A stretch of 57,529 nucleotides of DNA from Escherichia coli (GTDB taxonomy: Bacteria; Pseudomonadota; Gammaproteobacteria; Enterobacterales; Enterobacteriaceae): NCBI RefSeq assembly GCF_003334355.1, contig NZ_QOWP01000025.1. One strand, given 5' to 3'. Below are positions 1 through 1,155 of the stretch, piece after piece. The position numbers were made by a program, and so were the translations under genes. The notes beneath the pieces are model-generated. The model saw only the letters and a program-made list of their open reading frames with translations. It was not told the DNA's origin and ran no database searches. How positions within the stretch are numbered: the stretch's first letter is position 1; each line of letters begins with the position of its first letter.

Positions 1-77
1 CTAGTCTAAAAACTAGTATTAAGACTATCACTTATTTAAGTGATATTGGTTGTCTGGAGATTCAGGGGGCCAGTCTA
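1..77 (-). mobile_element. IS2: IS2 left terminal segment, continuing beyond the window edge
   Basis: Reverse complement of 1-77 reads TAGACTGGCCCCCTGAATCTCCAGACAACCAATATCACTTAAATAAGTGATAGTCTTAATACTAGTTTTTAGACTAG, which matches the IS2 left end as I recall it; element body lies left of the window. Confidence 0.8.
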
Positions 78-1155
78 CTGGCACACCATCATCATTGGTA
101 TCAACAGTTAAGTGCGCAGACATTGCCGCACCAACCCACTTGCTGCCATTGTTCAGGGTCAGATCCAGGCGATCAGTACCATCCCAACCGTTAGTATCTA
201 CATCACCGTCAGCATCACGATAGCTATCACGACCATGCGGGAAGAAGTTCTCATCAAAGTTACTTGAGAAGAATACATCGCCCATCAGTGTAGAATTATC
301 GAATGTTGCAGTGGTTTGCATTGCGTTATCAGCAGCAGGATGTGCAATAACGGCTAATGCGATATCATCTCTATTCCAGTCACCGCCATTGTAATCGCTG
401 GCATTGCCGGTATTACCAAACCAACCACTAGTACCTTCATCAGACCATGAACCAGAGGTCACAGTAGAGTCTTTAACAGTGATGGTGTTGTTAAACACTT
501 CGCTGCTGTTAACACCAGTGCTAACCGTGTTGTCGTCGATATCTTCCCACTCGTAACCCTGAGTCAGCGTAATACCCGCTACGTGAGAGTTATTAGAGAT
601 GGACAGATCAACTTCCTGATCCAGAGTGATGGCAGTACCGATGTTAAATACATTTACAACATGAGTGTCAGCGGCATTATTGTAGGTGCCGTTATATGTG
701 TAGTGTTCGTAGTTGTCGTCGATCGTTGAATTATCAACAGTCAGCGCCAGACGGTCATGGTAATAATCATTCGCACGTTCAGCACAATCAGTTGTCATGC
801 ACTCGGAATAAATCATACCGTGAATAGTGCTGTTTTTGATTGTTAGACTATTGGCGTTGGTATTGGTAGAAATACCGTCGTCCAGATAGTAGGTAGAAAT
901 CACGCCGTTAACAGTAGCGTTATTAATGACCGGGTAGATATCGCCGTTGTAATAACTATCAGCGGCATAGTTGTTCCAGCCTACATAACCATCATAGTAA
1001 ACGTCATCAGCATAGGTGGCGTCGTTGTAGTGATGGAAAGTATTGTAAGTTTGACCAGAAATATCGTTGGTCGCTGCATTAGCCTGAGAGGTGATAGCCA
1101 GAGTGCAAGCCAATGCTAATTGTGATACTACAAGTTTCTTTTTCCAGGAGTGCAT
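28..1155 (-). pseudogene. yaiT: Autotransporter-family protein (YaiT-like), N-terminal passenger fragment truncated by IS2; ORF reads through the junction at 77/78 into IS2 sequence and stops at 28-30
   Basis: 375-aa ORF with signal peptide MHSWKKKLVVSQLALACTLAITSQANA and N/T/D/Y-rich beta-helix-like passenger; no beta-barrel domain; position next to hemB. Confidence 0.7.

Follow-up and report, generated by a model that had tools for sequence, protein, structure and literature searches.

An IS2 terminus within ehaB

The window analyzed here, a 57,529-nucleotide (nt) stretch of Escherichia coli DNA (NCBI RefSeq assembly GCF_003334355.1, contig NZ_QOWP01000025.1), begins with one end of the insertion sequence (IS) IS2 joined to the 5' part of an autotransporter gene. 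The neighbors of the interrupted gene, hemB (1645..2652, + strand) and tauD and tauC (- strand), are the same as in K-12; the hemB-tauDCBA synteny holds, and the N-terminus of the EhaB passenger is present at the hemB-adjacent locus. The intact gene at this locus is ehaB, annotated in RefSeq as "autotransporter adhesin EhaB", and yaiT is the name of the K-12 pseudogene. EhaB is a characterized adhesin; laminin and collagen I are its reported ligands, and it promotes the formation of biofilm (Wells et al. 2009, cited in PMC13248724 and PMC9289746). Among complete genomes, that of E. coli PSS-12, a commensal from human feces in Ecuador, is the closest, with 99.98% identity over the first 5.7 kb and 100.0% reported over 24.9 kb. 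The features of the left end of the window are as follows.

1..77, - strand: terminal 77 bp of the IS2 left end, in which IS2 position p is window coordinate 78-p (77/77 identity to an IS2 copy)
26..45, no strand: 9+2+9 inverted repeat, IS2 positions 33-52, TATCACTTAAATAAGTGATA in IS2 orientation (repeat arms computed)
28..30, - strand: TGA stop of the chimeric open reading frame (ORF), IS2 positions 48-50, the TGA within the TGAT of the PIRL extended -10 promoter
28..1155, - strand: chimeric ORF, EhaB residues 1-359 plus 16 IS2-encoded residues, VDWPPESPDNQYHLNK (ORF list, protein and DNA alignment)
78..82, no strand: CTGGC, predicted copy of a 5-bp target-site duplication (from comparator IS2 insertions and the intact site)
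78..1155, - strand: 5' fragment of ehaB/yaiT, nt 1-1078 of 2979, comprising the putative signal peptide and ~330 passenger residues (alignment to PSS-12)
1075..1155, - strand: codons 1-27, MHSWKKKLVVSQLALACTLAITSQANA, putative Sec-type signal peptide (sequence inspection only)
1156..1644, no strand: intergenic region between the divergent ehaB and hemB, presumed site of the ehaB promoter, intact (comparison with PSS-12)

Window positions 1-77 match the complete 1331-bp IS2 of E. coli ECL27977 at 77/77 positions (E = 5e-36). Reverse-complemented, they read TAGACTGGCCCCCTGAATCTCC..., the left end of IS2 on the side of the left inverted repeat (IRL), and the longer reading, TAGACTGGCCCCCTGAATCTCCAGACAACCAATATCACTTAAATAAGTGATAGTC..., agrees at every base with the IS2 left end as the footprinting paper numbers it (PMC3299598). 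The 42-bp IRL occupies window positions 77-36 and begins 5'-TAGACTGGCC.... The window edge lies 15 bp before the insC/orfA start codon; in the comparator locus L001, the transposase coding sequence begins 91 bp inside this IS2 end, and the comparator IS2 copies are annotated with a programmed frameshift, as befits an element whose OrfAB transposase is made from orfA and orfB by a -1 shift. Intact ehaB alleles align gap-free from base 78, the boundary is unambiguous against four alleles, and the junction therefore lies exactly at 77/78. With the junction marked by a slash, the intact site reads ...GCAT/CTGGC... and the window ...GTCTA/CTGGC... (in a longer view, ...CCGTAAGCAT/CTGGCACACC... in the intact gene and ...GGCCAGTCTA/CTGGCACACC... 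in the window). IS2 is inserted between nt 1078 and 1079 of ehaB, within codon 360, with its transposase genes co-directional with ehaB.

The ehaB DNA retained in the window (78..1155) amounts to 1078 nt, or 359 codons plus one nucleotide, and the 359 residues that it encodes are all identical (359/359) to those of EhaB WP_000556485.1, the 992-residue protein of strains IAI1 and PSS-12. Codon 360 is divided by the junction (G/TA), with Val replacing Asp, and 15 further codons are read from IS2. The resulting - strand ORF (28..1155) has 375 codons plus a stop; it starts with ATG, opens with MHSWKKKLVVSQLALACTLAITSQANA and closes with ...DGVPVDWPPESPDNQYHLNK (C-terminal end ...PPESPDNQYHLNK), followed by the TGA at 28-30. 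On inspection, codons 1-27 show a basic n-region, a hydrophobic core and an A-N-A cleavage motif, as in a signal peptide, and this segment is kept even in the divergent K-12 allele.

Intact EhaB carries an autochaperone domain (Pfam PF18883, residues 593-677) and a beta-domain (PF03797, 734-971, E = 1.7e-46), together with the NCBIfam model TIGR01414 at residues 595-992. A search of the Pfam and NCBIfam libraries with the 375-residue product gave no significant match, and PF03797, PF18883 and TIGR01414 were found in the intact orthologue only. EhaB residues 360-992 are missing from the chimeric product, and with them the autochaperone and the translocator, a 12-stranded beta-barrel. In type Va secretion, the beta-barrel translocator is required for outer-membrane insertion and surface display; with both domains missing, the stump, judged by its domain content, cannot work as an autotransporter. 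A sequence-only reading of this DNA had proposed a 77-bp IS2 end with its terminus at 77/78, a 359-codon yaiT stump whose frame crosses into IS2 and stops at 28-30 (ending ...YHLNK), and the loss of the translocator barrel, and each of these proposals is borne out by the alignments and domain searches. Window positions 1-1155 should therefore be annotated as a pseudogene fragment of ehaB (yaiT) with an IS2 end attached, and no 375-residue protein should be entered for them.

The same reading had described a perfect 20-bp palindrome at 26-45. The string (TATCACTTATTTAAGTGATA) and its location are right, but it is not a perfect palindrome: the arms at 26-34 and 37-45 are 100% complementary and are separated by a 2-nt gap, a central TT that does not pair with itself. 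Within the repeat lie TAAATAA, the site of the OrfA repressor, and TGAT, with which the extended -10 promoter PIRL opens. In the footprinting work, IS2 residues 39-48, which include the OrfA binding sequence, are protected, and the TGAT at 48-51 starts the weak extended -10 promoter PIRL (PMC3299598); the positions of TTAAATAAGT (39-48) and TGAT (48-51) in the window match that description. On sequence grounds, the repeat at 26-45 is the known OrfA-operator/PIRL regulatory region of IS2 and nothing new.

Two further observations concern this part of the element. The IS2 leader contains a second, imperfect inverted repeat at window positions 2-27 (IS2 positions 51-76), just after PIRL and before orfA; its 13-nt arms, 2-14 and 15-27, are 85% complementary. 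In the IS2 copy within ehaB of strain MDR_56 (locus L002, 4026-4045), the 9+2+9 repeat has its two middle bases flipped (CTTATTTAAG vs CTTAAATAAG in IS2 orientation). The flip changes the reported OrfA site TAAATAA; it may be genuine variation of IS2 or, this genome being rich in indels, a mistake of assembly.

Nature, age and consequences of the insertion

IS2 belongs to the IS3 family and moves by copy-out/paste-in transposition through a minicircle, normally leaving a 5-bp target duplication. The window is best explained by a simple IS2 insertion in ehaB (yaiT) at codon 360, to which we assign a probability of about 0.85. This explanation is favored by the two comparators with examined flanks, each of them a simple insertion: the IS2 copies in the ehaB genes of ECL27977 and MDR_56 are complete, of the 1331-bp class, and have 5-bp duplications and the ehaB 3' part on the far side. 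By analogy with these comparators, IS2 would continue beyond position 1 and be followed by a second CTGGC, the last 1901 nt of ehaB, and then iprA and ampH. The predicted second junction on the + strand is 5'-GTAAACAGGACCGTAAGCATCTGGC/TGGATTTGCCCCTATATTTCCAGACA-3', that is, the ehaB 3' part, the duplicated CTGGC and the IS2 right end; it may also be written ...CCGTAAGCATCTGGC/TGGATTTGCCCCTATATTTCC..., with the CTGGC duplicate abutting IS2. The reading frame of the interrupted gene extends 16 codons into IS2 and halts at the TGA in the PIRL -10 region.

Two points weigh against a simple insertion. The window stops 77 bp into IS2, so that neither the whole element nor its other junction nor a target duplication is seen, and the exact junction was not found in any collection searched, hence there is no leftward extension. 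Neither the barrel-coding 3' part of ehaB, nor iprA, ampH or a second IS2 copy is present in the 57.5-kb window.

These gaps leave some room for a larger rearrangement, in which the IS2 end would mark either the adjacent loss of the 3' part of ehaB with its neighbors or two IS2 copies that had recombined or given rise to an inversion; the truncation point of ehaB would be unchanged, and the missing half would be lost or would lie elsewhere in the genome. With the ehaB 3' part, iprA and ampH absent from the window, their adjacency is not in hand, and IS-associated deletions do occur in close relatives, as where an IS1B in PSS-12 replaces 15.2 kb that the window keeps. Yet the window ends merely because it stops inside an IS copy, the closest relative, PSS-12, has the normal ehaB-iprA-ampH order, and the 5-bp duplications of both comparators are those of simple insertions, so we regard a rearrangement as improbable. 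Less credence still is due to an assembly artifact, in which the contig end was wrongly extended into a multi-copy IS2 k-mer and ehaB is really intact. Such an artifact would fit the IS fragments at both ends of the window (IS2 at 1-77 and IS1 at 57350-57529) and the length of the IS2 piece, exactly 77 bp, which by our own reckoning is a common assembler k-mer length. However, a contig break at a repeat normally means that a real copy of the repeat is there, and this break falls exactly at the IS2 terminus, as real transposition predicts, unlike a random misjoin. Intact ehaB, moreover, shares no sequence with IS2 at the site that could misjoin the assembly graph, and an artifact is very unlikely.

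It is scarcely credible that the 375-residue product represents a short allele of natural origin or functions as a secreted or periplasmic protein, even though its ORF is open, the start codon, putative signal peptide and upstream region are kept, and no further mutations are present. All intact alleles examined encode ~980-992 residues with a C-terminal barrel; the sequence-only reading had named an intact orthologue ending at the same point as the observation that would speak against it, and none of these alleles ends there. The last 16 residues are read from the IS terminus, no protein of exactly this sequence is on record, and the absence of decay is explained by a recent insertion.

The simple insertion itself looks recent and strain- or lineage-specific, because ehaB is intact in PSS-12, in the normal ehaB-iprA-ampH arrangement, and the DNA of the stump (78-1155, 1078 nt) is 100% identical to it. 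Over window positions 78-5755, the two genomes differ at a single position, A/G at 1247, in the ehaB-hemB spacer. The exact junction is absent from 5,426 complete E. coli genomes, and exact 40-mer junction scans gave no match in GTDB species representatives (one genome per species) or in JGI metagenome contigs; an exact look-up of the 375-residue chimeric protein likewise returned no identical protein on record. Five records fully covered the junction query and were set aside: the match in ECL27977 and ECL27829 is a different IS2 site joined from two pieces, and that in MDR_56 is a site 13 bp off. The junction is a unique marker of the strain or lineage, since ehaB is intact in its closest complete relative.

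From the general biology of type Va autotransporters, the stump, which keeps the putative signal peptide, would be exported to the periplasm; in the absence of a barrel it would be neither inserted into the outer membrane nor displayed, and it would probably be degraded. On the same basis, the strain would be ehaB-null for the laminin- and collagen-binding, biofilm-promoting adhesin, and it should be scored as EhaB-negative in virulence-gene or adhesin typing. The event is a routine case of an IS inactivating a non-essential adhesin gene, one that IS elements often strike. The allele had not been recorded before, but its kind is well known.

The rest of the window

The right end of the window (57350-57529) consists of the first 180 bp of IS1 (GGTGATGCTGCCAACTTACTG...), located 177 bp upstream of the pdeL (yahA) start at ~57173. 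This fragment is 97.8% identical to one IS1 copy of PSS-12 and 92% identical to the PSS-12 IS1B. PSS-12 has neither the IS2 nor the IS1 insertion at the sites of the window ends. The presence of strain-specific IS copies at both ends suggests to us a short-read contig broken at multi-copy repeats. IS fragments at both ends had also prompted consideration of a Shigella origin, which was rejected: the first 25 kb contain the mhp and lac genes, as annotated in PSS-12, and the whole window is 99.8-99.98% identical to PSS-12, barring the 15.2-kb PSS-12 deletion and a few small indels.

That deletion concerns window positions 38439-53676 (15.2 kb), which are kept here and are replaced in PSS-12 by a single IS1B; the difference therefore points to an IS1-associated deletion in PSS-12. 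ORF sizes and order in this segment match those of K-12 prpD(5')-prpC-prpB-prpR and yahO..yahE, names that we assign presumptively from K-12 gene sizes. At 31749-32351, a 200-bp unit that is single-copy in PSS-12 is repeated in tandem (3.0 copies, 98% matches), starting ~84 bp before the cynR stop codon and running into the cynR-codA spacer. In the tauA region (5751-5756), PSS-12 has ~90 extra bp relative to the window, possibly reflecting variation in a repetitive extragenic palindromic (REP) element. The Rfam scan of the window returned four matches above the gathering score, all to naRNA4 (RF02564), at 14563-14638, 35057-35133, 39907-39978 and 49664-49733, and nothing else, with none in 1-1644. 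We take these naRNA4 matches to be elements of the REP or bacterial interspersed mosaic element (BIME) type.

Comparison with IS2, EhaB and other ehaB disruptions

With respect to the element, the left end in the window is the IRL described for IS2 by Lewis, Grindley and co-workers, and the OrfA operator TAAATAA and the PIRL TGAT at 48-51 are shared; there are zero differences over the available 77 bp, and the remaining 1254 bp, with the 41-bp right inverted repeat (IRR), lie outside the window. With respect to the gene, residues 1-359, the locus and the upstream region are the same as those of intact EhaB (WP_000556485.1; the O157:H7 EhaB of Wells et al. 2009). Intact EhaB, however, continues to 992 residues with its autochaperone (593-677) and beta-barrel (734-971), whereas the EhaB sequence of the window product ends at residue 359.

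The lesion in K-12 yaiT offers a further comparison. In MG1655, IS3B (1258 bp, 391709-392966) breaks yaiT (b4580) in two behind nt 1458 (codon 486), at a site that aligns to about residue 507 of the window allele. The two cases share the locus, divergent from hemB and upstream of iprA-ampH, and in both an IS3-family element lies in the passenger-coding region. They differ in several respects: (i) the element is IS3 in K-12 and IS2 in the window; (ii) the K-12 insertion follows codon 486, whereas that in the window follows nt 1078, at codon 359/360; (iii) the orientations are opposite; and (iv) at the N-terminus of the passenger, the K-12 allele has only 42% identity to the window allele. The K-12-type lesion (IS3 after yaiT nt 1458) is not present in the window. 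With element, site, orientation and allele all different, the lesion in the window arose independently, in agreement with the sequence-only reading, which placed an IS3 elsewhere in K-12 yaiT.

IS-mediated disruption of ehaB is documented in other strains too. A comparative study of Shiga toxin-producing E. coli (STEC) O145:H28 found IS insertions in ehaB of multiple strains (PMC9144400). In addition to IS2, the gene has been struck by ISEc52 (strain 504838), IS30 (CM194533) and IS1A (S1-CAM-01-C). Our survey of ehaB disruptions was a 60-row, evenly spaced sample, which yields no reliable frequency; in two of its rows the match covers a transposase, and in a further 11, K-12 derivatives among them, the match falls in two separate places. 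In the sheep isolates ECL27977 and ECL27829, Tn5-type DNA (IS50R transposase, aph(6)-Ic and a bleomycin-binding protein) lies in the 5' part of the IS2-bearing ehaB (locus L001, 5387-8428), and with Tn5-type DNA and IS2 in one ehaB, the gene has been struck twice in these isolates.

Independent strikes across lineages by IS2 (at least four sites), IS3, ISEc52, IS30 and IS1 raise the question of whether ehaB is a preferred target of IS inactivation, an idea that we consider tentative and rather unlikely. Two of the IS2 sites lie 13 bp apart, in the same orientation, in alleles that are ~91% identical. This pair could reflect a structural target preference of IS2 in this stretch of the gene or recurrent selection for loss of the adhesin; by our own estimate, the chance of one pair within 13 bp or less among four IS2 sites in the 2979-bp gene is roughly 0.05, which is suggestive only. 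IS2 has already been reported to insert non-randomly in the neighboring hemB. Neither a common orientation nor a common target motif emerged: the copy in FDAARGOS_943 is inserted in the opposite direction, which argues against an orientation rule for IS2 in ehaB, and no motif is shared among CTGGC (predicted here), ATCAG and CCCAC.

Among the IS2 insertions themselves, that of MDR_56 lies 13 bp upstream of the window site, after nt 1065, with the duplication ATCAG. It involves the same IS, gene and orientation, in an allele ~91% identical over the aligned 1.46 kb, and differs in its site. The insertion in ECL27977 and ECL27829, 228 bp downstream of the window site at ~nt 1306 with the duplication CCCAC, has (in ECL27977) the same orientation as that in the window and again a different site. 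In FDAARGOS_943, IS2 lies at ~nt 510, oriented opposite to the window copy. None of these strains (MDR_56, ECL27977/ECL27829 and FDAARGOS_943) shares the junction seen in the window. The lesion in the window is a further example of the loss of ehaB to IS elements that recurs in E. coli.
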